DNA of 38,267 bases from Patescibacteria group bacterium (GTDB lineage Bacteria > Patescibacteriota > Microgenomatia > Levybacterales > UBA12049), in NCBI GenBank assembly GCA_035260725.1, contig DATFUR010000013.1:1-38267 (forward strand). Reading direction: 5' to 3'. A program made the position numbers and the translations under genes. Positions 7,267 to 35,023 of the stretch are shown piece after piece; position 1 is the stretch's first letter; each line of letters starts with the position of its first letter. The notes beneath the pieces are model-generated. The model was not told the origin of the DNA. It made no database searches and saw nothing but the letters and a program-made list of their open reading frames with translations.

Positions 7267-7295
7267 TTGACAAGAAAATCTAATTACTTTACGAT
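7267..7295 (+). promoter_or_regulatory. sigma70-like promoter, leaderless configuration
   Basis: TTGACA(7267-7272)-N17-TACGAT(7290-7295)-N6-ATG(7302). Confidence 0.55.
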
Positions 7296-7301
7296 TTTTA
7301 T

Positions 7302-7739
7302 ATGAAGCTTTTATTGAAATGGTCGAAAAATCATTTTTTCCTCGTAATTCTTCTTGCCATAACTCTTCTTTCTTCGCTTTACTATTACACACAGCTTCAA
7401 AAAACCCAAAAAGAATTGGCAGATCTTAAGAAAAATCCAACAGTCGCAGCCCAAAATGAAAACAATGCTCTTATTGCAAAAGTAGGCCAGCTAGTAGTAT
7501 TGCCAACAGGAGAAACGCCAACAATCGCAACAGTTTCGGATATAAGTAAACTAAAAAATCAGCCGTTTTTCTCCAAAGCAGAGAACGGAGACAAAATTTT
7601 AATTTATACACAAGCTAAAAAAGCTTATCTTTACTCTGTTGGGTTGAATAAAATTCTAGACGTTGCACCGGTCAATATAGGAGCGCAAGGAAATAGCCCT
7701 CAAGTAGCAGGTGAATCAACCGGACCTATAAAAAAATAA
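7302..7739 (+). CDS. membrane-anchored hypothetical protein, tandem paralog 1
   Basis: ATG start. N-terminal hydrophobic helix (FFLVILLAITLLSSLYYY). Its core, LPTGETPTIATVSDISKLKNQPFFSKAENGDKILIYTQAKKAYLY...APVNIG, is shared with the next gene. A consensus promoter lies directly upstream. Confidence 0.8.
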   Translation: MKLLLKWSKNHFFLVILLAITLLSSLYYYTQLQKTQKELADLKKNPTVAAQNENNALIAKVGQLVVLPTGETPTIATVSDISKLKNQPFFSKAENGDKILIYTQAKKAYLYSVGLNKILDVAPVNIGAQGNSPQVAGESTGPIKK

Positions 7740-7740
7740 T

Positions 7741-8145
7741 ATGGCAAAACAAATAGTACTTATTGTTCTTTTGATTCTGGCCATAATCGGAGGAGTTTTT
7801 GCGTTCACAAAATATCAGGCAACGCAGACGGAACTTACAAAATTAAAGCAAAATCCTCAATCTGTTGCCCAACAGGAAGTAAAAGATTTAGTCGCTCAAG
7901 TTGGTAAAATAGTAGAGCTTCCAACAGGAGAAACGCCAACAGTTGCAACAATTACAGACAAATCAAAGCTTACAGATCAACAGTTTTTTGCTAATGCGCA
8001 AAACGGAGACAAGGTTTTAATCTATGTGCAGGCTAAAAAAGCTTATCTTTATAGACCTTCAACAAACAAGCTCATTGATATAGCGCCGGTAAATGTGGGA
8101 ACAGCTTCCGCAAGTCCATCCCCGTCAGCAACCCCTAAGAAATAG
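7741..8145 (+). CDS. membrane-anchored hypothetical protein, tandem paralog 2
   Basis: ATG one nt after the previous stop. N-terminal helix IVLIVLLILAIIGGVFAF. The core LPTGETPTVATITDKSKLTDQQFFANAQNGDKVLIYVQAKKAYLY...APVNVG is paralogous to 7302-7739. Confidence 0.8.
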   Translation: MAKQIVLIVLLILAIIGGVFAFTKYQATQTELTKLKQNPQSVAQQEVKDLVAQVGKIVELPTGETPTVATITDKSKLTDQQFFANAQNGDKVLIYVQAKKAYLYRPSTNKLIDIAPVNVGTASASPSPSATPKK

Positions 8146-8868
8146 TTATTTGGTAAACAATTTTTGTGCTTTAGCGTAGTCTTCGTGCGTGTCTATTTCC
8201 ACCCATTTTAAGCCGGAAATATCTACAGCGCCAAAAGGTATTCCAAGTTCAACCAAAGTCGTATAAGAATCATCGTAATACTCGTTCCATTTATTTGGAT
8301 CTTTGAGCAATTGTTCCAGCTCGCCGAATAATATTTTTCCGGCCTCCTTACCTATTTTTTCAATACCGATTGATTCTCCGGAAGCTCTATTGAAGTCAAT
8401 TTTTTTTCCTACTTTTAAAACTCGACCATCAGTTCCAAGTTGGACTTTTACTTCCTCTTTGTCCAAGTGGATGTTTTTATCTATGCAAAGTGCACTCTTA
8501 AATGGACTTTGAATAAGTTTTTCCAGAATTTTCTGTTCGAAAACAACATCGGCATCGAATTTTACAAAGTCCTCATCTCTAATAAATTTTTTAGTCAGCA
8601 TGAGAGAGTAGGCAGTATTTGTTTTGTCAAACTTGTCGTTTCTAACGTATTTGATATTAAGGCCGGTAAAGGAGGAGGCAAATTCCTTGATCTTTTCTTC
8701 CAAGTATCCGGTCACAATGGTCACATCTTTTATTCCGGATTTTTGAATATTTGTCAGCATTCGTCCAAGTATTGTTGAGCCGTTAATCTCAAGCAAAGAT
8801 TTTGGGGCTTGGTCGGTGAGAGGTCTTATTCTTGAGCCTACGCCTGCTGCCAAAATAACTGCTTTCAT
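8146..8868 (-). CDS. LicC/PntC-like sugar- or headgroup-phosphate cytidylyltransferase (MobA-like NTP transferase family)
   Basis: N-terminal MKAVILAAGVGSRIRPLTDQAPKSLLEING nucleotide-binding signature. YSLMLTK, SGESIGIEK and WVEIDTHEDY blocks are arranged as in LicC-type CTP:phosphocholine/phosphonate cytidylyltransferases. Confidence 0.7.
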   Translation of the reverse strand: MKAVILAAGVGSRIRPLTDQAPKSLLEINGSTILGRMLTNIQKSGIKDVTIVTGYLEEKIKEFASSFTGLNIKYVRNDKFDKTNTAYSLMLTKKFIRDEDFVKFDADVVFEQKILEKLIQSPFKSALCIDKNIHLDKEEVKVQLGTDGRVLKVGKKIDFNRASGESIGIEKIGKEAGKILFGELEQLLKDPNKWNEYYDDSYTTLVELGIPFGAVDISGLKWVEIDTHEDYAKAQKLFTK

Positions 8869-8889
8869 AGAAGAGCTACTATTGTATAG

Positions 8890-9654
8890 CTATTTTCTTA
8901 GAGGTTCAAGAAGCTTGCCCGAGTTCTTGCTTACTTGATGTCCTCTTTCCCAAAATCTCCAAAATGCGATTACGATTTGGCTTACGGCAAGTATCCAAAG
9001 AGCCAGATCCAGTCTATTAAATAAAGCTCCAAGTGAGGTGAAAACTGCAAATTCTGCCTCATCGACGAACAATATAATTCTATTTCTAATCCAAAGAGAA
9101 TTTAAAAACGTTAATTTATTAATTTTTTTCTCCAGCTGTTCTCTTTTTTGGGCGGATTTGGATAAATACGAAGAATCAAGATCTATTCGGCCAAAAAGGG
9201 TTGCGAGTTTTATATAATACCTAAACATAAAGAAAAAACACGCAGCAAAGCCCAGGTAAATAAACAAAATATTGTCTGTTTTAAGGAAAACGGCGAGAGA
9301 AAGAGAAAAAGTTATTATGAAGATTTTTAAAACGTCCAATACTTTGTCCAAAAAGTCTCCAAAATTTGAAGACATGTTTCTTTCGCGGGCCAACTGGCCA
9401 TCCAGATCGTCACCGATATAGCCTAAAAATATGCCAATGCTTGCAAAATAAAGGTGCATCGGATATTGGACAAAAAGAGAGAGGCATCCTGCGGTAAAAA
9501 TAAAAAAAGAAAACCAGGTAACGGCATTAGGGGTTATAAATTTTAGATTTTTTATTATTTGGAGGAGCAGATTTGCAAGCGGATATCCGAAAATATCGGC
9601 CCAATTGCCGTAGTAGGAAGATTTTATAACCTTGGATTCTTTTTGAATAGGCAT
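8890..9654 (-). CDS. CDP-alcohol phosphatidyltransferase family membrane protein
   Basis: Perfect family motif D-x2-D-G-x2-A-R-x8-G-x3-D-x3-D in DDLDGQLARERNMSSNFGDFLDKVLD, plus several hydrophobic helices. The ATG at 9654 is preferred over the track's TTG at 9669. It sits 1 nt after the upstream gene's TAA. Confidence 0.8.
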   Translation of the reverse strand: MPIQKESKVIKSSYYGNWADIFGYPLANLLLQIIKNLKFITPNAVTWFSFFIFTAGCLSLFVQYPMHLYFASIGIFLGYIGDDLDGQLARERNMSSNFGDFLDKVLDVLKIFIITFSLSLAVFLKTDNILFIYLGFAACFFFMFRYYIKLATLFGRIDLDSSYLSKSAQKREQLEKKINKLTFLNSLWIRNRIILFVDEAEFAVFTSLGALFNRLDLALWILAVSQIVIAFWRFWERGHQVSKNSGKLLEPLRK

Positions 9655-9655
9655 A

Positions 9656-10825
9656 TTACAATGTTCCAAAAAGCACAGGATCTTGGAGGTTAATATTTCT
9701 TATAGGTATAGCTAATTTATCGTCTTTGTCTTTTTGGATTTGTTGTAAAACTTCCTCGAGGTTGCGTAGGAAGAATTCGACGTTGTCTTTATTTATTGCG
9801 CCTATGTTTCCAACTTGGAAAACCTTGTTTAGGAATGGTCCCTTGCCGTTATAAACAATAATATTTCTTTCTCTAAGGTGCTGTTTTAGCTTTTCAAATT
9901 CTACGGAGTTAGGTAATTTTACTGTCGTTAAAACCGAGGACATATGCTCTTCGTCTATCAAAAACGAGAGGCCGAGTTTTTTTAGCCCTGTCCTTAGGAT
10001 TTGGGTCATATCGTCGATGTGTTTTCTTCTTTTTGCGATTCCCTCGTTTAAGACGTTTGTCAAAGCCTGATTAAAGGCAAAATACAGCTGTACTGCAGGG
10101 GTGTTGGGTGTTTGGGAAAATTGAGTAGAGTAACGGTAAAAATTGTAGAGGTTTAGGTAGGCGGTTTTGGCGGGAACGTCTTTAAGCTTCTCGAACTCTT
10201 CTTTTTTTCCAATAACAAAAGCAACGCCTGGAAGAGATCCAATTGCCTTGCCTGCCGTTCCTGTGCAAAATGCAACGTTGGCTTTTTCCAGGTCAATTTT
10301 TTCGGCCCCAGCGCTACTAATTGAATCTACGAAGAACATTTTGTTATACTTTTTGGTTATTAATCCTACTTTTTCGAGTGGGTTTAGCATTCCTGTCGAA
10401 GTTTCATGATGGACCATTGCAACAACGTCCACGCGGTTTCTCTTTATATATTTTTCTATTCTTTCTAAATCTAAATTCTCTGCCCAATCAAACTTTAAGA
10501 TTTTTGTGTTTTTGTTGTGGATTTTGGAAATATCGTACAATCTTTCCCCAAATTCACCATTGGACAAAACAAGAATATGCAAATCTCCGGGCAAGGAGGA
10601 GAGTACGGCTTCGTTAACTGCGGTTCCGGAGCCTGTTATAACAACAGGGTGGTATTCCTTTGTGTCTCGGATTTCATAAAGCTCTAAAAGTTTGGAGTTG
10701 ATGTTGCCTAAAAGCTGTGAGAATTCACTTTCCCTGTGCCCGATTTCGTTTTGAACAGCGTCTTTAACATTTGCTGCAATATTTACCGGTCCCGGACAGA
10801 ACAAAAAGTGCTTTTTTACCTTCAT
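9656..10825 (-). CDS. class V (AGXT/PhnW-like) pyridoxal-phosphate aminotransferase
   Basis: FCPGPVNI...IGHRESEF, AMVHHETSTGMLNP, the PLP-lysine block TGTAGKAIGSLPGVAFVI and FQVGNIG. This resembles both serine-pyruvate/AGXT enzymes and 2-aminoethylphosphonate-pyruvate transaminases. ATG 10825 (MKVKKHF...) is preferred because a TTGCAA-N17-TATAAT promoter lies inside the track's TTG-started extension. Confidence 0.75.
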   Translation of the reverse strand: MKVKKHFLFCPGPVNIAANVKDAVQNEIGHRESEFSQLLGNINSKLLELYEIRDTKEYHPVVITGSGTAVNEAVLSSLPGDLHILVLSNGEFGERLYDISKIHNKNTKILKFDWAENLDLERIEKYIKRNRVDVVAMVHHETSTGMLNPLEKVGLITKKYNKMFFVDSISSAGAEKIDLEKANVAFCTGTAGKAIGSLPGVAFVIGKKEEFEKLKDVPAKTAYLNLYNFYRYSTQFSQTPNTPAVQLYFAFNQALTNVLNEGIAKRRKHIDDMTQILRTGLKKLGLSFLIDEEHMSSVLTTVKLPNSVEFEKLKQHLRERNIIVYNGKGPFLNKVFQVGNIGAINKDNVEFFLRNLEEVLQQIQKDKDDKLAIPIRNINLQDPVLFGTL

Positions 10826-10850
10826 TTTCTGATAATTCACGTAAGTGAAG

Positions 10851-10879
10851 ATTATAGTCTTATTGTGCTTGGTTTGCAA
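10851..10879 (-). promoter_or_regulatory. sigma70-like promoter for the aminotransferase/CDP-alcohol PT/cytidylyltransferase operon
   Basis: Minus strand: TTGCAA(10879-10874)-N17-TATAAT(10856-10851), 25 nt before ATG 10825. Confidence 0.55.
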
Positions 10880-10903: not shown

Positions 10904-10933
10904 TTGCCTAAAATATAGTTTTGCGTTTATACT
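10904..10933 (+). promoter_or_regulatory. sigma70-like promoter for the dcd operon, leaderless configuration
   Basis: TTGCCT(10904-10909)-N18-TATACT(10928-10933)-N6-ATG(10940). Confidence 0.5.
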
Positions 10934-10939
10934 CTTTTC

Positions 10940-11509
10940 ATGATTTTGTCGGACCGCGACATCAAAAAGGCCTTAAATTCGGGCCGAATCAAGATAACCC
11001 CAACTCCGGACTTCAAAACCCAGCTTGGCTCATGCTCCGTCGATTTGCGCTTGGGAAACGTCTTCCGCGTATTTGAACACAGCAAAAATGCGTATCTTGA
11101 TCCGGCAAAAAAAGATTACACAAATGAAATAACAAGAGAAATAAAAGTTAAAAATGGCGATAAATTTATAATGCAGCCGGGGGATTTTGTTTTGGCGGTA
11201 ACCTTGGAGAAAGTAAAAATTCCTAATGATTTAATGGGAAGGCTCGAAGGGCGTTCGTCTTTGGGGCGTTTGGGAATAGTTGTCCATTCTACAGCTTCTA
11301 TTTTTGATCCGGGTTGGGACGGCAAATGCGTTCTAGAGCTTGGTAATCTGGGTCGAATGGCAGTATCCCTTACTCCCGGCATGAGAATATGTGCAATGAC
11401 CTTTGAAGAGCTCACAAGCTCTGCGGAAACACCCTACACAAAGAAAAAAAATGCTAAATACGTATTCCAAAAAGGACCGGGGGAGTCAAAAATTCACCAA
11501 GATTTATGA
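10940..11509 (+). CDS. dcd: dCTP deaminase (Dcd family)
   Basis: MILSDRDIKKAL...GSCSVDLRLGN...GRSSLGRLGIVVH...DPGWDG...LELGN and a C-terminal YTKKKNAKYVFQKGP tail typical of Dcd. Confidence 0.85.
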   Translation: MILSDRDIKKALNSGRIKITPTPDFKTQLGSCSVDLRLGNVFRVFEHSKNAYLDPAKKDYTNEITREIKVKNGDKFIMQPGDFVLAVTLEKVKIPNDLMGRLEGRSSLGRLGIVVHSTASIFDPGWDGKCVLELGNLGRMAVSLTPGMRICAMTFEELTSSAETPYTKKKNAKYVFQKGPGESKIHQDL

Positions 11510-12734: not shown

Positions 12735-13723
12735 AAAAAAATCAAAAAACAAAAATCAAAAATCAAAATCACCCCGAATACCAATACCTAAATCTAGCAC
12801 GTGAGATTCTTAAAAGTGGAATAAAACAAACCGACAGGGGAACCGGTGTTTCGGATTACAGTATTTTTGGAAGGCAGTCGGTTTACGACTTGTCCAAAGG
12901 TTTTCCTCTTCTTACCACGAAGAAAGTTTACTGGAACGGAGTAATTCAGGAGCTTTACTGGTTTTTCTCGGGACAGACAAACATTAAATATCTTGTAGAT
13001 CACAATGTCCACATCTGGGACGATTACCCCTACAAAATTTACAAATCAAAAAATCCAAAGACCAAAATGACAAAGGACGAGTTCATTCAAAAGATTCGTG
13101 ATAACAGTTCATTCGCAAAAAAATGGGGGGAATTGCCCCGGATTTACGGCGAGATGTGGCGCAAATGGCCGACCCGCAAAAAAGGCAAGACAATAGACCA
13201 GCTCAAATGGATTATTGATGAGCTGAAAGCAGATCCCAACGCCCATAACGCGATTGTAAACTCCTGGAACCCCGAATATTTGTATACAATGGCAGACAAG
13301 AAGGACGCTTCGAGGTTTCCGATTTGCCACAACATGTACCAGGTTAGTAACCGCGGGGGAAAACTCTCATTAATTCTTTATCAGAGGAGTTGCGATTTGT
13401 TTTTGGGAGTTCCTTTTAATATCGCGTCATACGCATTGTTAACGCTTATTCTAGCAAAAATTTTAAAACTTGAGCCCGGAGAGTTTGTTCACGTTTACGG
13501 CGACGTCCATATTTATGAAAACCACATAAAACAGTTTAAAGAACAACTAAAAAGGATTCCTCGGCCATTTCCTAAGGTAACGTTAAAAGGAAAATTAAAC
13601 AAGATCGAAGATTTTAAGCCCGAGATGGTAGTTTTGGAAAATTATGACCCCTACTCTCCGATTAAGGCCGAACTTACTGTTGCGGGAGGATATTATGAGG
13701 GAAGAAAAAGAAAACGAAAATAG
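12731..13723 (+). CDS. thyA: thymidylate synthase ThyA (long form with L. casei-type insertion)
   Basis: DRGTGVSDYSIFG, GELPRIYGEMWRKW, catalytic FPICHNMYQ, LYQRSCDLFLGVPFNIASYALL and GDVHIYENH. Confidence 0.85.
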   Translation: MKKNQKTKIKNQNHPEYQYLNLAREILKSGIKQTDRGTGVSDYSIFGRQSVYDLSKGFPLLTTKKVYWNGVIQELYWFFSGQTNIKYLVDHNVHIWDDYPYKIYKSKNPKTKMTKDEFIQKIRDNSSFAKKWGELPRIYGEMWRKWPTRKKGKTIDQLKWIIDELKADPNAHNAIVNSWNPEYLYTMADKKDASRFPICHNMYQVSNRGGKLSLILYQRSCDLFLGVPFNIASYALLTLILAKILKLEPGEFVHVYGDVHIYENHIKQFKEQLKRIPRPFPKVTLKGKLNKIEDFKPEMVVLENYDPYSPIKAELTVAGGYYEGRKRKRK

Positions 13724-14806: not shown

Positions 14807-15540
14807 GCCACCCGTTTTATAAATCCCTTTTCTTTTAGGAATCTGTGGATTTCTTCAGCAACCTCATCGATACTTTTGCCTGTTGTTGAAAAATGCTTAT
14901 CATAGACTAGCTTTCCGCTTTTGTCTCTAAGTCCGGGATTGAAAGGATTGCCGGTAACTAATTCGGGGTGTGCCTTTTGCCAAGTCTCCAGATCTCTTTT
15001 TTCTCTTTCCAGTGTACCTTTTTTTACTTCTTGGAGAGTTTTCTGATCTTGGGGATATTTCTCGTTCCATCTATTTGTAAGGCGCGAAATCCTCTCTGTA
15101 AATTCGCAGATGAAAAGAAGCGAAACGACGGGTAAATCGATTCCTATCTCCTTAGCTTTTCTTACCTCTTCCGCTTTAAATATACCAGCTAAGCGGCCTT
15201 CGAGAATAAGTGGATTATCTACGGTCGCTTCTCTTATTAATAACGCCTGTAACTCATCAAGCTCTATGTCTTTGGAAAGAGGCCTATCTTGGTAGCCCAA
15301 CATGTCTCCAATGTCTTCCCGTAGTTCAGCGCCAACTTTTCTGAATCTCTTAACAGGAATGCCGTATTTAATTACCATTTCTAATCCAGTCGTGGTTTTT
15401 CCTGTCCCCGAAGGTCCCGATATTGTTAGGCCGCCAAAATTAGGGACCCATATTTCCGGAGGCTTCACGCTTTCTCCGGTGAGCCTTGCTTCTAGGCGTT
15501 TTTGCCTAAGTTTTAATTCTCTTGCTTCTATCTCTCTCAT
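14803..15540 (-). CDS. P-loop nucleoside-monophosphate kinase-like protein (cytidylate-kinase-like)
   Basis: Walker A ISGPSGTGKTTTG, an LILEGRLAG block as in CMP-kinase-like enzymes, and a consensus promoter upstream. Substrate unknown. Confidence 0.55.
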   Translation of the reverse strand: MREIEARELKLRQKRLEARLTGESVKPPEIWVPNFGGLTISGPSGTGKTTTGLEMVIKYGIPVKRFRKVGAELREDIGDMLGYQDRPLSKDIELDELQALLIREATVDNPLILEGRLAGIFKAEEVRKAKEIGIDLPVVSLLFICEFTERISRLTNRWNEKYPQDQKTLQEVKKGTLEREKRDLETWQKAHPELVTGNPFNPGLRDKSGKLVYDKHFSTTGKSIDEVAEEIHRFLKEKGFIKRVA

Positions 15541-15550
15541 AGTTGGGGGA

Positions 15551-15579
15551 ATTATAGGCTTTTAAATTTTCAAAATCAA
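15551..15579 (-). promoter_or_regulatory. sigma70-like promoter for the kinase-like gene
   Basis: Minus strand: TTGATT(15579-15574)-N17-TATAAT(15556-15551)-N10-ATG(15540). Confidence 0.5.
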
Positions 15580-15588: not shown

Positions 15589-15617
15589 TTGCAAAGACCA
15601 AATCTTGGAGTTATACT
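15589..15617 (+). promoter_or_regulatory. sigma70-like promoter for glyA
   Basis: TTGCAA(15589-15594)-N17-TATACT(15612-15617)-N13-ATG(15631). Confidence 0.5.
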
Positions 15618-15630
15618 TTTGGAAGATTTA

Positions 15631-16953
15631 ATGAAGTTCTTACAAAAAGAAGATCCCGAAATTTACCAGCTCATAAAAGAAGAGGAAAAAAGACAGCGCG
15701 ATGTCTTGGAAATGATTCCCTCCGAAAATTACACCTCGCAAGCAGTCATGGAAGCACTCGGAACTGTCCTTACCAACAAATATTCCGAAGGATATCCGCG
15801 GAGAAGATATTACCAGGGAAACAAAATAATCGATCAGGTCGAGCTGTTGGCAGAAGAAAGAGCAAAAAAATTGTTCGGTGTTCCGTACGTTAATGTCCAG
15901 GCTTTATCCGGATCTCCTGCAAATCTTGCAGTATACGTTGCCCTTTTGGAACCCTTAAAAGACAAGATAATGGGGCTGTCTCTTGCCTTTGGAGGGCATC
16001 TGACTCACGGACAACCGCAATCTTCTACAGGGAAATTTTTCCAATCGGTTCTTTATGAGTTGGGCAAAGATTCAACGCTGGATTTTGACGCAATCGAAGA
16101 ATTAGCCGAAAGAGAAAGACCCAAGATAATTGTCTGCGGATTTACAGCATATCCCCGAACAATCGATTTTGAAAGATTTGGGAAAATTGCAGACAAAGTC
16201 GGGGCATACCTTTTGGCCGACGTTTCCCATATTGCAGGCTTAATCGTAGCGGGAGCGCATCCTTCGCCTGTCCCTTACGCCGACATTGTTACAACAACGA
16301 CCCACAAGACACTGCGCGGACCCAGGGGGGCTTTAATAATGGTTACAGAAAAAGGACTTAAAAAAAACCCGGATTTGGGAAAACTAATAGACACCGCAAT
16401 TATTCCGGGGCTCCAAGGAGGTCCGCACGACAATCAAACTGCCGCAATCGCCGTTGCTCTAAAAGAGGCGGACACAAAAGTATTTAAAGCGTACGCCAAT
16501 CAGATTGTCAAAAACGCCAAAAAGCTCGCCGAAGAGCTGACGAAAAAAGGTTTTGAATTGGTTTCGGGCGGCACCGACAATCACCTTATCCTTATTGACT
16601 TAAGGGGTAAAAAGGTAAATGGAGCCGTGGCTGCGATAGCTTTGGAAATAGCAGGAATTGTTACCAACAAAAACGGCGTGCCGTTTGACACGATGCCTCC
16701 TTTTTATCCTTTCGGAATCCGCCTTGGTACTCCGGCCATAACAACAAGGGGCATGAAAGAAAAAGACATGGCAAAAATTGCCGGTTGGATGGAGCGGGCA
16801 GTGGAAGAAGTAAGAAAGGAAGAGTTGCCGGAGGAAAAAGCTGCCAGAAGTTATTTTATGAAGGATTTTAGAAAAAGAATAATTATAAACGAAAACCTAC
16901 TAAAAATCGCCGGGGAAGTAAAACAATTCTGCTCCAAATTCCCAGTTCCATGA
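15631..16953 (+). CDS. glyA: serine hydroxymethyltransferase
   Basis: SENYTSQAVMEALGTVLTNKYSEGYP and the PLP-lysine block TTTTHKTLRGPRG. ATG 15631 (MKFLQKEDPEIY) is preferred. The track's TTG at 15589 coincides with the -35 box of the predicted promoter. Confidence 0.9.
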   Translation: MKFLQKEDPEIYQLIKEEEKRQRDVLEMIPSENYTSQAVMEALGTVLTNKYSEGYPRRRYYQGNKIIDQVELLAEERAKKLFGVPYVNVQALSGSPANLAVYVALLEPLKDKIMGLSLAFGGHLTHGQPQSSTGKFFQSVLYELGKDSTLDFDAIEELAERERPKIIVCGFTAYPRTIDFERFGKIADKVGAYLLADVSHIAGLIVAGAHPSPVPYADIVTTTTHKTLRGPRGALIMVTEKGLKKNPDLGKLIDTAIIPGLQGGPHDNQTAAIAVALKEADTKVFKAYANQIVKNAKKLAEELTKKGFELVSGGTDNHLILIDLRGKKVNGAVAAIALEIAGIVTNKNGVPFDTMPPFYPFGIRLGTPAITTRGMKEKDMAKIAGWMERAVEEVRKEELPEEKAARSYFMKDFRKRIIINENLLKIAGEVKQFCSKFPVP

Positions 16954-17305: not shown

Positions 17306-17506
17306 TTAAGTTTTCTTTGGAGGTTTTGAGACTTGATCTTGAGAGGCAGGTTTGGCTTCTTTCAAAAACAGTTGTCCGGGATTAATTGCCGAAAGAACTT
17401 TTGAAGCAAGGTAAATCCAAGCATTAAGAGTGAAATCAATCGCATCCTCGGCTATTTCCGATTCAATTATTTTATTTGCTATATTTGGGTGTCCCTCTAA
17501 ACTCAT
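17306..17506 (-). CDS. hypothetical small protein (66 aa)
   Basis: ATG start with TTGTAA-N17-TAACAT-N8 directly upstream. No family recognised. Confidence 0.5.
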   Translation of the reverse strand: MSLEGHPNIANKIIESEIAEDAIDFTLNAWIYLASKVLSAINPGQLFLKEAKPASQDQVSKPPKKT

Positions 17507-17514
17507 AAGAAAGA

Positions 17515-17543
17515 ATGTTACCAGAATTGGTTTTACTTTACAA
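17515..17543 (-). promoter_or_regulatory. sigma70-like promoter for the 66-aa/108-aa gene pair
   Basis: Minus strand: TTGTAA(17543-17538)-N17-TAACAT(17520-17515)-N8-ATG(17506). Confidence 0.45.
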
Positions 17544-19286
17544 TTAGGGGGCGATTTCCTGGTAGGTAAAATTGGCCTGTTTTAGAAAGTTTGGCGAATT
17601 AAGAATAAAGTCGGGCCGCTCCGCCGCGGAGAAAGCCGGGCATTGTACGTTTCCGGCGCAAAGGTCTCTTTGGTTTTGGAAACTTCCTCCGTTAAGACTG
17701 GCGTTTGTAATTACACTTCCGCCGACATTAAGCCTTAGATCGGTGCCCACAGAGCAGTCGTTTGTTCCCTGGACAATAAAGTTTTTATCAGCACTGTATA
17801 TTCCTTCTATGTCCGCGGTTGTAGAGGAATTAACCGCCTCGCCGACTGCTTTGTCTACTGTTATGTTGCCCGATGAGGAGAAAATCGCCGTAGATCCTAC
17901 GGGTACAAATATTTTTTCGGCGATTGTCAGGTCTCCATTTTTTACCAAGATTACAAAGTCTTGAGACGCTCCAAATGTGTATCCGCCGCCCACTAATTTG
18001 AGATTGCCGTTTGCAATATAAATTCCGTGGGGCAGAGAAGAAGACAAAGTGCAGCTGGAAATTCCGCCGGTGCAGTAAGAGGCAATATCCACGGGCTTGC
18101 CCTTGGAAAGAAGGAAACTGTATGAAGTTTTAATCTGCCCGCCGATTTTAGTCGGTGAATAAGTTTCGCCGTAGCTTATTCCACCTGCCACCCAGTCGTT
18201 TTGAGAAGCCCGGCCCTGTCCAAAATCCGCCGTTGTATTGCCTGTAAATACCAGTCCCGGTGTTCCACCTGACCCTGGCAAACTTGCGTAAGGCCCGCAA
18301 GAAGCGTTAGCCGGAATTTTGTTTATAAATCCGCTGTCTACTCTGCAGTCTGCGCCTATACATTGTATCCAAGGATTGGAATTGGTTATTCCAAAATTAA
18401 GATTTGCAATACTTCCTCCGCTACACGTCGCGGAATTTGATCCTCCTGTAGAGCATGTTCCTCCGACTGCAACCTGAAAAGACGGCGGAGGACCGTTTAG
18501 AGGATAAGTCAGTTGGTATCCGCTGGGCTTGTCTGTGTAGGAAATTGTGTAAGTCCCGGTATTGAGATTGCTGACCGTATAGGCCCCACCTGCGGAGCTG
18601 ACACTTCCTCCTGTTGAGGCAATTGTAATACTGCCGGTGTAATTTGTTTCGTTACTATCCTTTAGAGTATTTTTGTTGTTGTCCAAAAATACATTTCCGG
18701 AAATTGTGTAAGTGGGCGGGGGTGGCGGAGGTGGAGGCGTAGGGAGTGGAGTCGGAGTTGCTGTGGAGCAAGTTAAGTCGCAAGACTGGATAGTATCGTA
18801 TCTGGTGCCGGTTGAGTTACAAGTTTTGACTGTTTTGGTGTAGCCATTATTGCAAGAGGGGTCGGCATAACAAGTCGGATCTTGCCAAGAACATACTCCC
18901 GCAATAGTGCACGTTGCCTTATGACCTGTTTGTCCGCCAGCTGTTGTGCATCCACACGAATAACTCCAACTTCCGCCAATGCAGTTAGTATCGCAAACAG
19001 GAGCGGGAGTCGGAGTCGGGGTTGGTGGTGGTAACTGTGAACCATATTGGGATTGGTAAGTATATTCTTGGTAAGAATATTGGGATTGATAACTATATTG
19101 GGATTGGTACCCATACTCCTGGTAAGAATATTGACCTGGGTATTCACTTTCATAACCATATTGTGCACCATACTGACTAGAATACTCAGTTTCATAGCCA
19201 TAGTTTGCCGCTGAAGCTTTGTTAGCTAGATAAGAAGGAAAAAAAACCACAAACAAAATGAGGAGAATTTTTATAAGCTTACCCAC
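17544..19286 (-). CDS. secreted Tyr/Gln-rich, Cys-rich, PT-linker protein with Cna-B/SdrD-like and beta-helix-like regions
   Basis: GTG start followed by a signal-like KILLILFVVFFPSYLANKASA. Then a Y/Q-rich tract, PPPTPTPTPAP and TPTPLPTPPPPPPPPT linkers, a Cys-rich block, and ISGNVFLDNNKNTLKDSNETNYTG (SdrD B-like pattern). Confidence 0.8.
   Translation of the reverse strand: MGKLIKILLILFVVFFPSYLANKASAANYGYETEYSSQYGAQYGYESEYPGQYSYQEYGYQSQYSYQSQYSYQEYTYQSQYGSQLPPPTPTPTPAPVCDTNCIGGSWSYSCGCTTAGGQTGHKATCTIAGVCSWQDPTCYADPSCNNGYTKTVKTCNSTGTRYDTIQSCDLTCSTATPTPLPTPPPPPPPPTYTISGNVFLDNNKNTLKDSNETNYTGSITIASTGGSVSSAGGAYTVSNLNTGTYTISYTDKPSGYQLTYPLNGPPPSFQVAVGGTCSTGGSNSATCSGGSIANLNFGITNSNPWIQCIGADCRVDSGFINKIPANASCGPYASLPGSGGTPGLVFTGNTTADFGQGRASQNDWVAGGISYGETYSPTKIGGQIKTSYSFLLSKGKPVDIASYCTGGISSCTLSSSLPHGIYIANGNLKLVGGGYTFGASQDFVILVKNGDLTIAEKIFVPVGSTAIFSSSGNITVDKAVGEAVNSSTTADIEGIYSADKNFIVQGTNDCSVGTDLRLNVGGSVITNASLNGGSFQNQRDLCAGNVQCPAFSAAERPDFILNSPNFLKQANFTYQEIAP
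19035..19202 (-). repeat. Tyr/Gln-rich low-complexity tract (18 Tyr and 12 Gln in 56 aa)
   Basis: YGYETEYSSQYGAQYGYESEYPGQYSYQEYGYQSQYSYQSQYSYQEYTYQSQYGSQ. The plus strand carries three copies of ATATTGGGATTGRTA (about 19045, 19078 and 19095). Confidence 0.9.
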
Positions 19287-19292
19287 AATTTT

Positions 19293-19321
19293 ATATTGAT
19301 GTATTTATAAAAAGGTGTCAA
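19293..19321 (-). promoter_or_regulatory. sigma70-like promoter, leaderless configuration (GTG start)
   Basis: Minus strand: TTGACA(19321-19316)-N17-CAATAT(19298-19293)-N6-GTG(19286). Confidence 0.45.
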
Positions 19322-20953: not shown

Positions 20954-21419
20954 AAGGTACAGGTGTTGGCGAAGGAGCCGAAACTAAAAATATTGCCTTT
21001 AATCCCCACGATCTTTTGTTAAGATCATAAACCATTCCCATTGTTGCAAGAGATCCAATTTTAACTACATCAATTGTGGAGGGGGTTTGAGTTCCGCTCT
21101 TAACTTCAAAAACCTTTGTATCCTTTGTTGCTAAAAATTGCGGGATATCTCTATCTGATATATCTAAAGTTATCGCGGTATTTTCTCCTACAGGAGTTAT
21201 ATTTGTGACTTTGCCTGTAAAGTTATAGGAAAAAAAGATAGAAGAAATTCCTTTGTGTTTGGGATCTATGGGCAAGGCAATAGAGTTTTGTAATGTCTGT
21301 ATTTGCAAAGGTGCATTGTAGGTTGTTTTTGTAGAACTTTTATTATTAACAAAGAAAAAGAGGATTGCATTGAGAAGAACAAATATAATTACAAGAATTA
21401 AAAGTCGTTTAGAATTCAT
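20946..21419 (-). CDS. membrane-anchored hypothetical protein
   Basis: ATG start, N-terminal helix LLILVIIFVLLNAILFFFV and C-terminal SAPSPTPVPSK. Promoter with the -10 box 6 nt from the ATG. Confidence 0.7.
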   Translation of the reverse strand: MNSKRLLILVIIFVLLNAILFFFVNNKSSTKTTYNAPLQIQTLQNSIALPIDPKHKGISSIFFSYNFTGKVTNITPVGENTAITLDISDRDIPQFLATKDTKVFEVKSGTQTPSTIDVVKIGSLATMGMVYDLNKRSWGLKAIFLVSAPSPTPVPSK

Positions 21420-21425
21420 TAGTTT

Positions 21426-21456
21426 ATTTTAAGCATAAAGGTTATTAGTTTGTCAA
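21426..21456 (-). promoter_or_regulatory. candidate promoter, leaderless configuration
   Basis: Minus strand: TTGACA(21456-21451)-N19-TAAAAT(21431-21426)-N6-ATG(21419). An alternative reading is TGcTTAAAA with N18. Confidence 0.4.
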
Positions 21457-22346: not shown

Positions 22347-22364
22347 TAAAATTACTTCGATTTT

Positions 22365-22393: not shown

Positions 22394-22394
22394 G

Positions 22395-23229: not shown

Positions 23230-23736
23230 TTACTCAATCATACTAAATGAGGAAACATATTGAATTTGTTTTGCAATATTAGACGAGGAAGAATAGATTA
23301 TAAGCAATAAGCTACCGGGTTTGATTTGTTGAAAAAAATCTGGGGCATTGGAGTATTGCTTTGTGTCGCTTGGAATCGTCGCAGTATTTGATGCAGTTTT
23401 ATTTTTGGGAAAAGTAACTTTTAGAAAAATTGTGTTTTTGTCCAGGTTAAAAGTCGTAATTCCTGTGGACCCAGCCACGGTAAAGTTTTTATCTGTTTTG
23501 GAGAGAAATAAGCTGTTAACAACCCATGTATTTGTCGATTTTGACAATTCTTGTGGTTTGGGGAAATGGGATTTAGCATATTGTTCGTAAGATATCTTGT
23601 GGGGGAGGGAGCCGAATTGGTTGGGGTAAAGGCTCGAAAGCGAGATTATATTAAAGTAGTTTAGAACTCCGAAGAAAAGAATAACTCCGAGGACAAGTAA
23701 GGCTATTGCGGCAACCCCAAATTTCGAATCGGCCAT
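23230..23736 (-). CDS. membrane-anchored hypothetical protein
   Basis: ATG start and N-terminal helix VAAIALLVLGVILFFGVLNYF. TTGACA-N17-TACGAT-N6-ATG. Confidence 0.7.
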   Translation of the reverse strand: MADSKFGVAAIALLVLGVILFFGVLNYFNIISLSSLYPNQFGSLPHKISYEQYAKSHFPKPQELSKSTNTWVVNSLFLSKTDKNFTVAGSTGITTFNLDKNTIFLKVTFPKNKTASNTATIPSDTKQYSNAPDFFQQIKPGSLLLIIYSSSSNIAKQIQYVSSFSMIE

Positions 23737-23742
23737 AAATTT

Positions 23743-23771
23743 ATCGTAAAGATTCTAGCTTCTCTTGTCAA
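23743..23771 (-). promoter_or_regulatory. sigma70-like promoter, leaderless configuration
   Basis: Minus strand: TTGACA(23771-23766)-N17-TACGAT(23748-23743)-N6-ATG(23736). The -35 box abuts the stop codon of the cohesin-like gene. Confidence 0.55.
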
Positions 23772-24323
23772 CTATCTTGCCGAGGGGGAAGAGTAGGCAG
23801 TAGACAGATCAAATTTTGTACCCAATGTTGACTTTAAGACGCTCTGGGCTATTCCTTCCGCACTTACAAGCGACTTGGCTGCAAAATCAATGGATGTTAT
23901 TCCGGCGGTTCTTAGTTTTCTAAAAGACAAAGTCGCGATAACTCCTTGTCCCGAAACCCCTTTTTGTCCAAGACCCACTCCAAGCGCGTAAGAAATTCTT
24001 CCGTTTGCAGTGTCGATCTTTTTAAGCAACTCATCCGGAGTCTTAAAGAAAGTTCCGGGTCTAACATCTACACTTGTTATGTCTTGAGGGTTATAGGAAA
24101 GCTCCAGTTGTACTGCTGTTGCTTTGTTACCCCTGGTGTCTATTACAACGTTAGATACAAAAGCGCTGCCAGAGGCACTAGGTGTTGTTAGAGACAAAGT
24201 TGTCTGTGCAACCGAAACAGGCACTGGCGTAGGTGTTTCTTTGGGTGTGAGGTTTAAAGACAAAGCCAGAAGCCCCGCAACCGAAACTATCAAAACTAAA
24301 ATTAAAATAAAAGTTCTACTCAT
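23772..24323 (-). CDS. membrane-anchored cohesin-domain-like protein (minimal anchoring scaffoldin candidate)
   Basis: N-terminal helix FILILVLIVSVAGLLALS. Then FVSNVVIDTRGNKATAVQLELSYNPQDITSVDVRPGTFF...ANGRISYALGVGLGQKGVSGQGVIATLSFRKL...TSIDF, which follows the cohesin pattern (v.idt.g..v.a.ql.l.Ydp..l....v..G.f ... G.i.fa......gvsG.G.la.i.F). Confidence 0.6.
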   Translation of the reverse strand: MSRTFILILVLIVSVAGLLALSLNLTPKETPTPVPVSVAQTTLSLTTPSASGSAFVSNVVIDTRGNKATAVQLELSYNPQDITSVDVRPGTFFKTPDELLKKIDTANGRISYALGVGLGQKGVSGQGVIATLSFRKLRTAGITSIDFAAKSLVSAEGIAQSVLKSTLGTKFDLSTAYSSPSAR

Positions 24324-24329
24324 CTTATT

Positions 24330-24358
24330 ATTATAACTATATTAATCTCCGTTTTGAA
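24330..24358 (-). promoter_or_regulatory. sigma70-like promoter for the cohesin-like gene, leaderless configuration
   Basis: Minus strand: TTCAAA(24358-24353)-N17-TATAAT(24335-24330)-N6-ATG(24323). The -35 box lies inside the 3' end of the dockerin-like gene. Confidence 0.5.
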
Positions 24359-25943: not shown

Positions 25944-25972
25944 AGAGTATTGAAATTAGGATATGTTGTCAA
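25944..25972 (-). promoter_or_regulatory. candidate promoter for the dockerin-bearing protein gene
   Basis: Minus strand: TTGACA(25972-25967)-N17-TACTCT(25949-25944), 42 nt before ATG 25901. It interdigitates with the divergent plus-strand promoter. Confidence 0.4.
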
Positions 25973-25978
25973 TACTAT
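25950..25978 (+). promoter_or_regulatory. sigma70-like promoter for the four-helix-bundle gene
   Basis: TTGAAA(25950-25955)-N17-TACTAT(25973-25978)-N9-ATG(25988). Confidence 0.5.
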
Positions 25979-25987
25979 TTAAAGTAG

Positions 25988-26362
25988 ATGAATAATCCAA
26001 TAAAAAAATCAAACGTGTCGATTAGGGATATTCATGAAAGGATTTATAAGTTTGTAATTCGAGTTTTAAATTTAATTAAATATATTCCTAAAACTTCCGA
26101 AAATATAGTTTTGATTGGACAAATAACGAGATCGGCAACTTCGATGGGAGCAAATGATCAAGAGGCAGATGGAGCAATTAATAGAAAAGATTTCGTTGCG
26201 AAATACTCAATTGTTAGAAAAGAGGGTAAGGAAATTAATTATTGGTTAAAAATAATTAGTGATACAAATCCAAAGCTTAAATCTAGAATGCAGGATTTAA
26301 TAGATGAAAGCGAGGAGCTTATAAAAATTGTCAGCACGATTATTTTTAAGACAAAAAGGTAA
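25988..26362 (+). CDS. four-helix-bundle protein (23S rRNA intervening-sequence protein family)
   Basis: IHERIYKFVIRVLNLIKYIPKT...IGQITRSATSMGANDQEADGAINRKDFVAKYSIVRKEGKEINYWLKII fits the family pattern (l..Ql.RsatSi.aNiaEg.....kdf...l.ia.gE..Et.ywl.l). Confidence 0.75.
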   Translation: MNNPIKKSNVSIRDIHERIYKFVIRVLNLIKYIPKTSENIVLIGQITRSATSMGANDQEADGAINRKDFVAKYSIVRKEGKEINYWLKIISDTNPKLKSRMQDLIDESEELIKIVSTIIFKTKR

Positions 26363-26387: not shown

Positions 26388-26416
26388 TTGTCTTATTCTC
26401 AAAATTCTTGTATAAT
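26388..26416 (+). promoter_or_regulatory. sigma70-like promoter for the rpsB-tsf operon
   Basis: TTGTCT(26388-26393)-N17-TATAAT(26411-26416), 73 nt before ATG 26490. Confidence 0.55.
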
Positions 26417-26432
26417 TTTGAGCTATCACTCA

Positions 26433-26482
26433 CATCCGATGATGTCTCTGACTACGGTTTTCGGATGGCGGTTAAAGAGACA
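26433..26482 (+). promoter_or_regulatory. structured rpsB 5' leader (two interleaved 7-bp helices, pseudoknot topology)
   Basis: CATCCGA(26433-26439) pairs with TCGGATG(26461-26467). TGTCTCT(26443-26449) pairs with AGAGACA(26476-26482). The order is A-B-A'-B', and B' ends 7 nt before the start codon. Confidence 0.45.
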
Positions 26483-26489
26483 CAAAATT

Positions 26490-31650: not shown

Positions 31651-31656
31651 TATATT

Positions 31657-32891: not shown

Positions 32892-33195
32892 TTCTTATTA
32901 TCGCTCTTATTGCTTTCTGTGTTAGATCGGAAAGAGCATTCACAATCGTATTCGGATTTTCTCCGCAATAAAATAAATCTCTTACTTTTTCGAAATTTTC
33001 AGGTGTTACTGTGACTGGATCCGATCCAGAATAAAATAGTGCTATCTCAAGGGGGACTCCTGATTGTAAATGTCCTCTATAGAGAGTTTGCAGATCTTCA
33101 AAAGGTGCGTGACCTTCAACAACCACTCCTGTAAATTTACCTTCTTCATCCGAAACCGGACTAATTTTCCCATTAATTATCAATCTTTCTCTCAT
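32848..33195 (-). CDS. hypothetical protein (115 aa)
   Basis: ATG start preceded by TTGAAA-N17-TATAAT-N9. The 3' end overlaps convergent gnd by 44 nt. No family recognised. Confidence 0.5.
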   Translation of the reverse strand: MRERLIINGKISPVSDEEGKFTGVVVEGHAPFEDLQTLYRGHLQSGVPLEIALFYSGSDPVTVTPENFEKVRDLFYCGENPNTIVNALSDLTQKAIRAIIRIIPSEQQSALQTNV

Positions 33196-33204
33196 AAGTT
33201 TGAG

Positions 33205-33233
33205 ATTATATCTAAGTGTTCACAATATTTCAA
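33205..33233 (-). promoter_or_regulatory. sigma70 consensus-like promoter for the 115-aa gene
   Basis: Minus strand: TTGAAA(33233-33228)-N17-TATAAT(33210-33205)-N9-ATG(33195). Confidence 0.55.
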
Positions 33234-33236
33234 GTG

Positions 33237-33245
33237 TGATATACT
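33237..33245 (+). promoter_or_regulatory. extended -10 promoter for proS, leaderless configuration
   Basis: TG(33237-33238)-a-TATACT(33240-33245)-N6-ATG(33252). Confidence 0.45.
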
Positions 33246-33251
33246 TTTTTC

Positions 33252-34469
33252 ATGAAGTATTCCAAGCTGTTTGGAAAAACCCGCCGGGAAGCGCCAAAAG
33301 ACGAAGTCTCCATAAACGCAAAATTACTCCTTCGAGCCGGATTTATAGACAAATTAATGGCGGGTTCTTTTACTCTTTTGCCCTTAGGTCTTAGAGTTGT
33401 TAAAAAAATCGAAGCAATTATCCGTGAAGAAATCGATAAAACAGGAGCAAACGAGGTTCTCATGCCGCTTTTGCATCCCAAATCTATTTGGAACGAAACC
33501 GGAAGATGGGATAGCGCAAAAGAAGTTATGTATCAGCTAAAAAAAGACGACAAAGAGTACGGGCTTTCTTTTACCCACGAGGAAATTGTTTTGGATTTGG
33601 TCCGCAGGCATAGCGGAAGTTTTCGCGATTACCCTATAAAAATCTACCATTTCTCAACGAAGTTTAGAGACGAACCAAGGGCAAAATCCGGAATTCTAAG
33701 AGGCCGGGAGTTTATTATGAAAGACCTTTACAGTTTGCACGAGACTAAAGAGGATTTAGAGAAATATTACGAAGAAATAAAACAAGTTTACCTGAAAATT
33801 TTTGAAAGATTCGGGTTAAGAGCGATTGTTACTGAAGCAGGCGGAGGAGTTTTTACCCAAAATACGACTCACGAATTCCAAGTACTGTCGGAGACCGGCG
33901 AAGACGAGATTATTTATTGCGAGGGCGGAGATTTTTCGCAAAATACGGAAATTGCAAAAGTAGAAGAAGGAAAAGAGTGCGATTTGGGTCACGGACCTTT
34001 AAAAAAAGCTAAGGCAATCGAGGTAGGTAATATTTTCCCTTATGGTCAGGATTACAGCAAAAAGATGAATGTTACTTTTACAAATAAAAAGGGAGAAAAA
34101 ACCTATCCATATTTTGGAAGTTACGGAATTGGCCTCACAAGGCTACTTGGAGTAATCGCCGAAGTACAAAGCGACGAAAAAGGCCTTGTCTGGCCAAATT
34201 CCATTGCACCTTTCCAGGTTTATTTAGTGGGATTAAATTCAAAAGCGGAAAAAGTTTACGAAGAGCTTCAAGAGGCTGGAGTTGAAGTTCTTTTTGACGA
34301 CCGGGAAGTTTCGGCTGGAGAAAAGTTCAAAGACGCAGATTTAATCGGAATTCCTGTTAGATTGGTTGTTTCGGATAAGACAGGAGACAAAGTCGAGTTT
34401 AAACACAGAAAAAGTGAAGAAACAGAGTTGCTTAGCTTAGACGAAGTTTTGAAGAAGATTAAAAAATAG
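33252..34469 (+). CDS. proS: prolyl-tRNA synthetase, bacterial-type N-terminus but short (405 aa, no INS editing domain)
   Basis: MKYSKLFGKTRREAPKDEVSINAKLLLRAGFIDKLMAGSFTLLPLGLRV, class II motif 2 FRDEPRAKSGILRGREFIMKDLYS, and a C-terminal anticodon-binding-like FQVYLVGL...GEKFKDADLIGIPVRLVV. Confidence 0.85.
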   Translation: MKYSKLFGKTRREAPKDEVSINAKLLLRAGFIDKLMAGSFTLLPLGLRVVKKIEAIIREEIDKTGANEVLMPLLHPKSIWNETGRWDSAKEVMYQLKKDDKEYGLSFTHEEIVLDLVRRHSGSFRDYPIKIYHFSTKFRDEPRAKSGILRGREFIMKDLYSLHETKEDLEKYYEEIKQVYLKIFERFGLRAIVTEAGGGVFTQNTTHEFQVLSETGEDEIIYCEGGDFSQNTEIAKVEEGKECDLGHGPLKKAKAIEVGNIFPYGQDYSKKMNVTFTNKKGEKTYPYFGSYGIGLTRLLGVIAEVQSDEKGLVWPNSIAPFQVYLVGLNSKAEKVYEELQEAGVEVLFDDREVSAGEKFKDADLIGIPVRLVVSDKTGDKVEFKHRKSEETELLSLDEVLKKIKK

Positions 34470-34809
34470 CGAAGACCTTGAGCCAAACCACTGTATAAAC
34501 CACAAAAAATGCTAAGCCCACGACTATAAGAACAACAGGCGATAATTTCTTGCCATTTGAATTTTTCACTACAACTGTTTTGCCTGTGGGAGCAGCTGGA
34601 GTGGCAACAAAAACTTGGGCGGGGGGCGCAGCCGGGTGTTCGGCAGTTTGCGTCTGGGGCTGAACCGGAGCGGGAGATTGAACGGATGCGGACGGTTGTG
34701 GAATAGAAGCTGTTGCAGGCGAACTCGCTGCGTTTGGCATTTGTGTTCCCATTACGCGGTCATATGTCTCCTTAAGTTTTGGATCGAGTGTTTGCTGATT
34801 TGGGTTCAT
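34459..34809 (-). CDS. hypothetical tail-anchored membrane protein (Pro/Ala/Gln-rich)
   Basis: C-terminal helix LSPVVLIVVGLAFFVVYTVVWLKVFAIF. ATG 34809 (MNPNQQ...) is preferred over the track start at 34920, because TTGACA-N17-GAGTAT-N6 sits immediately upstream of it. Confidence 0.6.
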   Translation of the reverse strand: MNPNQQTLDPKLKETYDRVMGTQMPNAASSPATASIPQPSASVQSPAPVQPQTQTAEHPAAPPAQVFVATPAAPTGKTVVVKNSNGKKLSPVVLIVVGLAFFVVYTVVWLKVFAIF

Positions 34810-34815
34810 AAATCC

Positions 34816-34844
34816 ATACTCTAATAATAAAAACTTTTTGTCAA
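34816..34844 (-). promoter_or_regulatory. candidate promoter, leaderless configuration
   Basis: Minus strand: TTGACA(34844-34839)-N17-GAGTAT(34821-34816)-N6-ATG(34809). Confidence 0.4.
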
Positions 34845-34848
34845 GAGG

Positions 34849-34991
34849 GTTGCGCTGAGGTCGCTTCGTCAGTTCGGTGTTCACCAACTTATATTTAAAA
34901 CAAATCTCTTCGGGATGCACGAATAACTCTTCTTAAGTATTTGTAATTGGTATTATTCGTTCACATCTCACGCCAAAGCTTCCCGCGCAAC
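34849..34991. repeat. expanded 143-nt copy of the same element with nested inverted repeats
   Basis: GTTGCGCTGAGGTCGCTTCG...GCTTCCCGCGCAAC, with terminal inverted repeat GTTGCGC/GCGCAAC. An inner 8-bp inverted repeat pairs ACGAATAA(34919-34926) with TTATTCGT(34953-34960). It lies between divergent promoters. Confidence 0.55.
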
Positions 34992-35014
34992 TTTTAATTT
35001 TGAATTGAATTATA

Positions 35015-35023
35015 TGGTATACT
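35015..35023 (+). promoter_or_regulatory. extended -10 promoter for the DHH/HIT operon
   Basis: TG(35015-35016)-g-TATACT(35018-35023)-N13-ATG(35037). Confidence 0.4.

Follow-up and report, generated by a model that had tools for sequence, protein, structure and literature searches.

Sigma-70-type promoters abutting start codons suggest frequent leaderless or near-leaderless transcription units in an ultrasmall Levybacteria-lineage genome

Gene content and promoters of the window

The window analyzed here, a stretch of 38,267 nucleotides (nt) from contig DATFUR010000013.1 of the Patescibacteria group bacterium assembly GCA_035260725.1, carries a series of genes whose start codons lie only a few nucleotides downstream of promoter-like -10 hexamers, an arrangement that would yield messenger RNAs with little or no 5' leader. 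The metagenome-assembled genome (MAG) comprises 630 kb in 45 contigs, has a GC content of 38.9% and is rated 99% complete. The host is an ultrasmall bacterium of the candidate phyla radiation (CPR), in the Microgenomates/Levybacteria lineage; the prolyl-tRNA synthetase (ProS) of the window shares 62-70% identity with proteins of MAGs labelled Candidatus Levybacteria/Levyibacteriota, Microgenomates or 'Patescibacteria group'. Several MAGs with a ProS 48-66% identical to that of the window (records L001, L008, L014, L016, L019 and L020) are titled 'uncultured Gammaproteobacteria bacterium' and are probably mislabelled. Pfam annotation of approximately 30 window genes reveals ordinary CPR content: a dcd-tmk-dcd-thyA-nudix-folA operon, glyA, rpsB-tsf, proS and a string of secreted or anchored proteins.

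An earlier note on this DNA had claimed that at least eight genes possess a -10 hexamer exactly 6 nt before the start codon and that five more have one at 7-10 nt. Reading the 60 nt upstream of each claimed start located all eight of the former (Table 1), including the literal string TTGACA-N17-TACGAT-N6-ATG common to the genes starting at 7302 and 23736, as well as proS, which has an extended -10 box but no good -35 box. Four of the five others (17506, 25988, 33195 and 15540) also stand, while the fifth, 19748, is weak. The promoter of the gene starting at 24323 overlaps the 3' end of the upstream gene. The 66-aa open reading frame (ORF) starting at 17506 on the - strand lies in the 244 nt that separate the ORFs at 17299 and 17544; it is under the usual ORF length cut-offs. 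A third TTGACA-N17-TACGAT promoter (22346-22395, - strand), with the same boxes as at 7302 and 23736, is found 18 nt before ATG 22346, which has no Shine-Dalgarno (SD) sequence; this gene would have a short SD-less leader, or its start would be mis-called.

Table 1. Promoters and SD sites of the window, with position weight matrix (PWM) scores where available
Coordinates	Strand	Elements and start codon	Gene or product	PWM score
7267..7304	+	TTGACA(7267)-N17-TACGAT(7290)-N6-ATG(7302)	145-aa protein, no Pfam match	13.6
10823..10879	-	TTGCAA(10879)-N17-TATAAT-N25-ATG(10825) or N10-GTG(10840)	aminotransferase operon	
10904..10942	+	TTGCCT-N18-TATACT-N6-ATG(10940)	dCTP deaminase (dcd), first gene of dTMP/folate operon	
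13685..13697	+	GGAGGA, 4 nt, ATG(13695)	SD site of internal Nudix gene	
15538..15579	-	TTGATT-N17-TATAAT-N10-ATG(15540)	kinase-like P-loop protein	8.8
15589..15633	+	TTGCAA-N17-TATACT-N13-ATG(15631)	glyA (SHMT); expected leader ~6-7 nt	
17504..17543	-	TTGTAA-N17-TAACAT-N8-ATG(17506)	66-aa ORF	11.3
19284..19321	-	TTGACA-N17-CAATAT-N6-GTG(19286); -10 imperfect	580-aa Pro/Thr-rich surface protein	7.5
21417..21456	-	TTGACA-N19-TAAAAT-N6-ATG(21419)	157-aa protein	14.1
23734..23771	-	TTGACA-N17-TACGAT-N6-ATG(23736)	168-aa protein	12.5
24321..24358	-	TTCAAA-N17-TATAAT-N6-ATG(24323)	cohesin-domain protein	10.7
25950..25990	+	TTGAAA-N17-TACTAT-N9-ATG(25988)	23S rRNA intervening-sequence family protein	10.6
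33193..33233	-	TTGAAA-N17-TATAAT-N9-ATG(33195)	115-aa protein, divergent from proS	15.3
33237..33254	+	extended -10 TGaTATACT-N6-ATG(33252)	prolyl-tRNA synthetase (proS)	
34807..34844	-	TTGACA-N17-GAGTAT-N6-ATG(34809)	supported start of ORF listed as 34459-34920	
36247..36263	+	AAGGGGGTG ... ATG(36261)	SD-like site of small internal ORF	

Genome-wide spacing between -10 hexamers and start codons

The earlier note had proposed a genome-wide comparison of -10-to-start distances with shuffled upstream regions. This comparison was made by three approaches independent of one another (promoter-first, gene-first and PWM), and the spacer is defined throughout as the number of nt between the -10 hexamer and the start codon. 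The gene set consists of 692 crude ORFs (longest ORFs, greedy resolution) covering 92% of the genome; gene-based tests used 662 longest-ORF starts for the TANNNT count and 628 genes for the PWM, shuffle and context analyses. The PWM, built from the spacer-6 sites, models the -35 box together with the extended -10 box; a score of >=8 was the cut-off.

In the promoter-first scan, which uses no gene calls, TGNTANNNT occurs 1281 times in the genome. ATGs opening an ORF of >=60 aa follow it 1, 5, 3, 3, 4 and 2 times at offsets 0-5, then 39, 22, 17, 12, 12 and 11 times at offsets 6-11, and approximately 3 times per offset thereafter; permuted trinucleotides give a flat profile. Among the 89 occurrences of TTGACA-N16-19-TANNNT, 14 have a long-ORF start exactly 6 nt downstream. 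In the gene-first count, TANNNT starts at -12 in 86 of the 662 longest-ORF starts, versus about 20 at neighbouring positions and 4-17 for internal in-frame ATGs. PWM sites number 10, 59, 28, 29, 19, 14, 8, 7 and 9 at spacers 5-13 and average 2.7 per position at 14-59 nt from the start. Thus, almost all recognizable promoters within 60 nt of a gene abut its start codon.

A PWM score >=8 at spacer 5-10 is found for 143 of 628 genes, versus a mean of 9.0 (standard deviation 2.8, maximum 16) in 100 dinucleotide shuffles. The spacing distribution therefore shows a sharp peak with its onset at exactly 6 nt, about 16 times the shuffle expectation, and the excess at 6-10 nt, whose absence the earlier note had named as grounds for rejecting its own proposal, is present. 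The intergenic DNA of this MAG is ~63% A+T and TANNNT is a loose pattern, so that -10-like hexamers could arise by chance and be picked out by a pattern-seeking reader; however, the peak is reproduced by none of the controls (positional, internal-ATG decoys, permuted trinucleotides, dinucleotide shuffles), which refutes this explanation and leaves it with a negligible probability.

The hexamers have the features of sigma-70 promoters

TANNNT at -12 was the sole criterion by which the 86 sites were picked, and their other features are thus unselected. G is present at -14 in 42 of them, versus a background of 19%, and T at -15 in 43 (the 'TG' of an extended -10 box). TTG appears at -35 to -33, a perfect TTGACA lies 16-19 nt upstream in 12 of the 86 sites (about 0.1 expected; modal distance 17), and the base at -1 is a pyrimidine in 63. 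The unselected TG, TTGACA and -1 pyrimidine indicate that these are sigma-70 promoters rather than mere AT-rich DNA; the -35 TTGACA and -10 TATAAT about 17 bp apart and the optional TGn are all present.

The larger set of 187 predicted leaderless starts has similar properties. TATAAT is the commonest -10 hexamer (47/187), TG occupies -15/-14 in 86, and the start codons are ATG (156), GTG (24) and TTG (7). The base at -1 is T in 103 cases, C in 32, A in 41 and G in 11. The transcription start sites (TSSs) predicted from these sequences would fall on the first base of the start codon, an A or G in 180 of 187 cases and a T in the seven TTG starts. A 2025 cross-phylum study (PMC12641261) describes a Y-R-Y 'start element' that sets TSS choice 7 bp after the -10 box, and the combination of a pyrimidine at -1, A at +1 and T at +2 matches it.

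The promoters depend on gene context. After start refinement and with a decoy control, an abutting promoter was counted at 83 of 164 divergently transcribed genes (decoy 11), at 65 of 157 same-strand genes with a gap of >=25 nt (decoy 17), and at 39 of 307 tightly packed internal genes, which lie <25 nt from the upstream gene (decoy 12). This bears on the possibility that TAnnnT is no promoter but a translation signal on leadered mRNAs, akin to the non-SD A/T-rich motif of Bacteroidota (GeneMarkS-2 group B). The motif is indeed AT-rich and sits where a ribosome-binding site would, and SD-like motifs are rare in the genome. However, a ribosome-binding site should serve heads of units and internal genes alike, whereas the motif is 3-4 times rarer before tightly packed internal genes than before unit heads; this context dependence speaks against a motif of the Bacteroidota type. 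The motif is moreover accompanied by TG at -15/-14 and by TTGACA at 17-nt spacing, which are contacts of RNA polymerase, and relatives retain a canonical anti-SD tail. A translational role of the motif is thus very improbable.

Conservation across relatives

The arrangement at dcd is retained in relatives. Alignments of all 25 orthologues from the same family or order extend back to residue 1. Taking the first TANNNT found 4-15 nt from the ATG, the distance is exactly 6 nt in 11 of them; three more, including that of the present genome, have hexamers at both 4 and 6 nt, and most others have 7-9 nt. The hexamers themselves vary between genomes (TATACT, TATAAT, TAAACT, TAGACT and others): the spacing of the dcd promoter is conserved and its sequence is not. 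Orthologues of proS, compared across Levybacteria, other Microgenomates, Saccharibacteria, Uhrbacteria, Parcubacteria and Peregrinibacteria, mostly have a -10-like box (TATACT, TATAAT or variants) 6-9 nt before the conserved N-terminal MKY..., often with TGn upstream. Most glyA orthologues have a -10 box 6-15 nt upstream of the start, while three genomes have an SD-like leader instead.

Pooled proS loci proved a weak basis for comparing lineages because proS itself adds to the counts; they were replaced by genome samples of 40-200 kb taken away from the proS, dcd and glyA loci, and by whole-genome counts. In the samples, five Microgenomates relatives show the 6-nt onset, with 12-20 sites per 100 kb; it is absent from Fusobacterium, E. 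coli and mixed non-CPR samples, at 4-6 per 100 kb. Samples of Uhrbacteria and Magasanikbacteria are intermediate. A CPR-like genome of 1.27 Mb has no 6-nt onset (~4 per 100 kb), and samples of Saccharibacteria and Peregrinibacteria show little or no 6-nt signal, although proS is promoter-adjacent there; the trait is therefore not claimed for the whole phylum.

Whole genomes were compared by the ratio of the TGNTANNNT-N6-ATG count to the count of the reversed pattern. The ratio is 4.25 in this MAG and 3.5-5.5 in the five Microgenomates relatives, as against 1.06 in E. coli, 1.5 in Fusobacterium and 1.1-2.8 in other non-CPR genomes. The reversed-pattern control is imperfect, and ratios below ~3 are not diagnostic, since two Acidobacteria-labelled MAGs and one of Methylomirabilota, none of them CPR, reach 2.6-2.8. 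Among 151 evenly drawn Patescibacteria genomes, the median is 2.4; the ratio is >=3 in 54 genomes and <1.5 in 28. Thus, the trait is widespread in the phylum and not uniform. The MAGs with ratios of 2.6-2.8 (G034, G200 and G201) are labelled Sulfotelmatobacter, Methylomirabilota and Acidiferrales; their counts suggest that they may also have a sizeable leaderless fraction.

Start codons

The earlier note had further proposed that the promoter pattern settles several ambiguous starts. This holds for 34809 and 15631, which are where orthologues begin, and weakly at best for 10825. For 34809 versus 34920, homology in relatives starts at residues 35-38 of the long form, of which 34809 is residue 38, and alignments reaching further upstream (residues 26-30, including one from the same genus) pass through stop codons; the comparison supports 34809. 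Most glyA orthologues begin at the equivalent of 15631 or within one codon of it, which supports 15631 as the start; the 'TTG start' at 15589 is the -35 box of the glyA promoter. In the third case, 10825 versus 10879, distant homologues begin at residue 19 or later, and TTG 10879 is again a -35 box. The gene, in an aminotransferase operon, starts either at ATG 10825, with an SD-less leader of ~18 nt, or at the in-frame GTG 10840, with a spacer of 10 and a near-leaderless message.

N-termini also agree with the promoter-abutting starts: the Pfam DCD model begins at residue 2 of dcd, and the alignments of ProS and of SHMT likewise set in at their ATGs. The Nudix gene probably starts at ATG 13695 rather than 13644, and the small ORF near the end of the window is likely to start at ATG 36261 rather than TTG 36192. 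For rpsB (26388-27344), the TTG 26388 start is in doubt, since the Pfam Ribosomal_S2 match does not set in until residue 43; rpsB seems to be one of the few genes with a real leader. Gene callers that expect SD sequences misplace starts in such genomes, and 34920, 15589, 10879, 13644 and 36192 are all probably wrong. Promoter geometry offers a cheap and accurate predictor of starts for CPR MAGs.

Operon-internal genes and the ribosome

The commonest arrangement of same-strand neighbours is an overlap of exactly 4 nt (ATGA), found in 72 pairs; an overlap of 1 nt occurs in 14 pairs. From these overlaps, translational coupling looks like the main start mode of internal operon genes. An SD-like 4-mer precedes 84 of 307 tightly packed genes (~27%). 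The small ORF at 36261 has the N-terminus MVIVKKMPGDSDEALIRKFSRKV, which is bS21-like, and is a candidate for ribosomal protein bS21 (rpsU).

The MAG contains no 16S rRNA gene. Eight relatives at family or order level yielded a 16S 3' region (seven of them reaching the 3' end), and GGATCACCTCCTTTCT is present in all eight; the anti-SD tail is therefore retained in the lineage, and the loss of CCUCC from the 16S 3' end that characterizes some Parcubacteria is not seen in these relatives. A 355-aa ORF with three S1-domain matches (contig C1:3885-4835, - strand) probably encodes a short form of ribosomal protein bS1, of which the E. coli version has six domains. A short bS1 here would match the short CPR form reported in PMC9297842.

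Extent and interpretation

The leaderless interpretation put forward in the earlier note is supported by the spacing peak, the promoter features and the conservation, all of them sequence-based and comparative. We put the probability that this genome has frequent leaderless or near-leaderless sigma-70 transcription units at roughly 85%. Net of decoys, approximately 150 of 628 genes (24%), and roughly 45% of unit-heading genes, look leaderless or nearly so; both percentages are rough, given the simple gene calls and a PWM derived from spacer-6 sites.

According to the proposed mechanism, transcription would start from housekeeping sigma-70-type promoters with the consensus TTGACA-N17-(TGn)TAnAAT. 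At most recognizable units, the usual initiation point, the seventh base after the -10 box, would be the A of ATG or the G of GTG, and the resulting mRNAs would have no 5' leader or one of 1-7 nt, and hence no SD site. The ribosome and initiator tRNA would bind the 5'-terminal AUG, as in leaderless translation. Downstream genes of operons would be translated mostly by termination-reinitiation at ATGA overlaps, and a minority by conventional SD pairing through the intact anti-SD tail of the lineage.

Several points weigh against this interpretation or limit it. Neither signal is found at ~38% of divergently transcribed genes. The contrast drawn in the earlier note between leaderless first genes and internal genes with SD sites is only partly borne out: both sites that it cited (Table 1) are real, but genome-wide only about a quarter of internal genes have one. 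In the window, the candidate at 19748 was rejected as a convincing member, having no TANNNT hexamer 5-10 nt from the start; the 13-nt spacer of glyA (15631) implies a leader and not a leaderless message; and ATG 10825, if it is the true start, lies 25 nt from the -10 box and would be leadered. Upstream promoters could add leadered isoforms. 'Leaderless' describes the geometry of the promoters here, from which we infer the 5' ends and the route of translation. The only CPR TSS set found in the literature, from Nanosynbacter, is of low resolution and derived from RNA-seq coverage; no CPR differential RNA-seq set was found.

Some of these points would also fit promoters that are real and messages that are not strictly leaderless, with variable initiation, short SD-less leaders of 1-15 nt or leadered isoforms from upstream promoters, translated by another SD-independent route (unstructured A/U-rich 5' ends, or assistance by bS1). 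Spacers are 7-13 nt in about 114 of 183 abutting promoters, so that many mRNAs may carry leaders of 1-7 nt, which again counts against strict leaderlessness. The wide range of spacers among glyA orthologues, the SD-less window starts 15631, 10825 and 22346 at distances of 13, 25 and 18 nt, and the presence of the probable short bS1 agree with this alternative. However, exactly 6 nt is the sharpest class, its 59 sites being twice those of any other spacer; spacers below 6 nt are almost absent, making for an abrupt onset; and dcd keeps exactly 6 nt across a family and an order. In addition, the ATG context offers a purine with a pyrimidine before it, and RNA polymerase can initiate on such a base 7-9 nt past the -10 box. 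The alternative is thus an unlikely, though not negligible, explanation, and predominantly leaderless or near-leaderless initiation is the preferred one.

Whether leaderless initiation is the default for the first genes of units throughout Microgenomatia, as well as in roughly one-third of Patescibacteria or more, we consider an even bet. If so, CPR would be the third bacterial lineage, and a very large one, to have a predominantly leaderless transcriptome; in the present lineage such initiation would go together with a reduced ribosome and an intact anti-SD tail. The answer would bear on whether leaderless initiation is ancestral or a repeated outcome of genome streamlining. The promoter geometry adds a deep-branching, species-rich lineage to the debate over the age of leaderless initiation. 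It also hints at how genes are expressed in organisms with minimal ribosomes and few aids to initiation, and predicts that a CPR promoter fused directly to an ATG is the right design for new genetic systems in Saccharibacteria and their relatives.

Comparison with known systems

The mechanism itself is already known, and leaderless starts are well established in other bacteria. Genomes with leaderless genes that are cited in PMC6028130 and PMC12641261 include Mycobacterium tuberculosis, with the TSS map reported by Cortes et al. 2013, and Deinococcus deserti, reported by de Groot et al. 2014. No open paper was found that links leaderless mRNAs to CPR/Patescibacteria; the literature yielded incidental mentions only (YchF, reference lists and leaderless secretion).

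The closest likeness is to 'group C' of GeneMarkS-2 (Lomsadze et al. 2018, PMC6028130), which comprises Actinobacteria and Deinococcus-Thermus and in which 25-50% of operons are estimated to be leaderless; that paper makes no mention of Patescibacteria/CPR. As in group C, a Pribnow box lies 6-8 nt before the start codon of the first operon gene: here, the -10 motif is found at 6-10 nt before first genes (83/164 divergent genes, decoy 11) and is much rarer before operon-internal genes (39/307). The ~45% of unit-heading genes falls within the 25-50% range of PMC6028130. In both systems AUG or GUG would stand at the 5' end while other genes use ribosome-binding sites, the latter part being weak here (~27%). 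Unlike group C, the host belongs to Patescibacteria/CPR and has an AT-rich, tiny 630-kb genome; its promoters usually include a clear -35 TTGACA or an extended -10 box; hardly any detectable promoter lies so as to give an ordinary leader of 20-60 nt; and internal genes rely mostly on ATGA overlaps rather than on SD sites.

According to Tsurumaki et al. 2022 (PMC9297842), the anti-SD motif is missing from some Parcubacteria; leaderless mRNAs are not discussed in that study. The present genome resembles them in being of CPR, with reduced ribosomes, little use of SD and a probable short bS1 (3-4 S1 domains in that study). It differs in that GGAUCACCUCCUUUCU is retained in all eight family- or order-level relatives in which the 16S 3' region was found; leaderless initiation would therefore coexist with an anti-SD tail rather than replace a lost one. 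Archaeal leaderless transcription (GeneMarkS-2 group D) is similar in that most units lack a 5' untranslated region and SD sequences serve internal genes. However, the archaeal promoter is a TATA/BRE box ~26 nt upstream, whereas the promoters described here have the -35 and -10 boxes of bacterial sigma-70.

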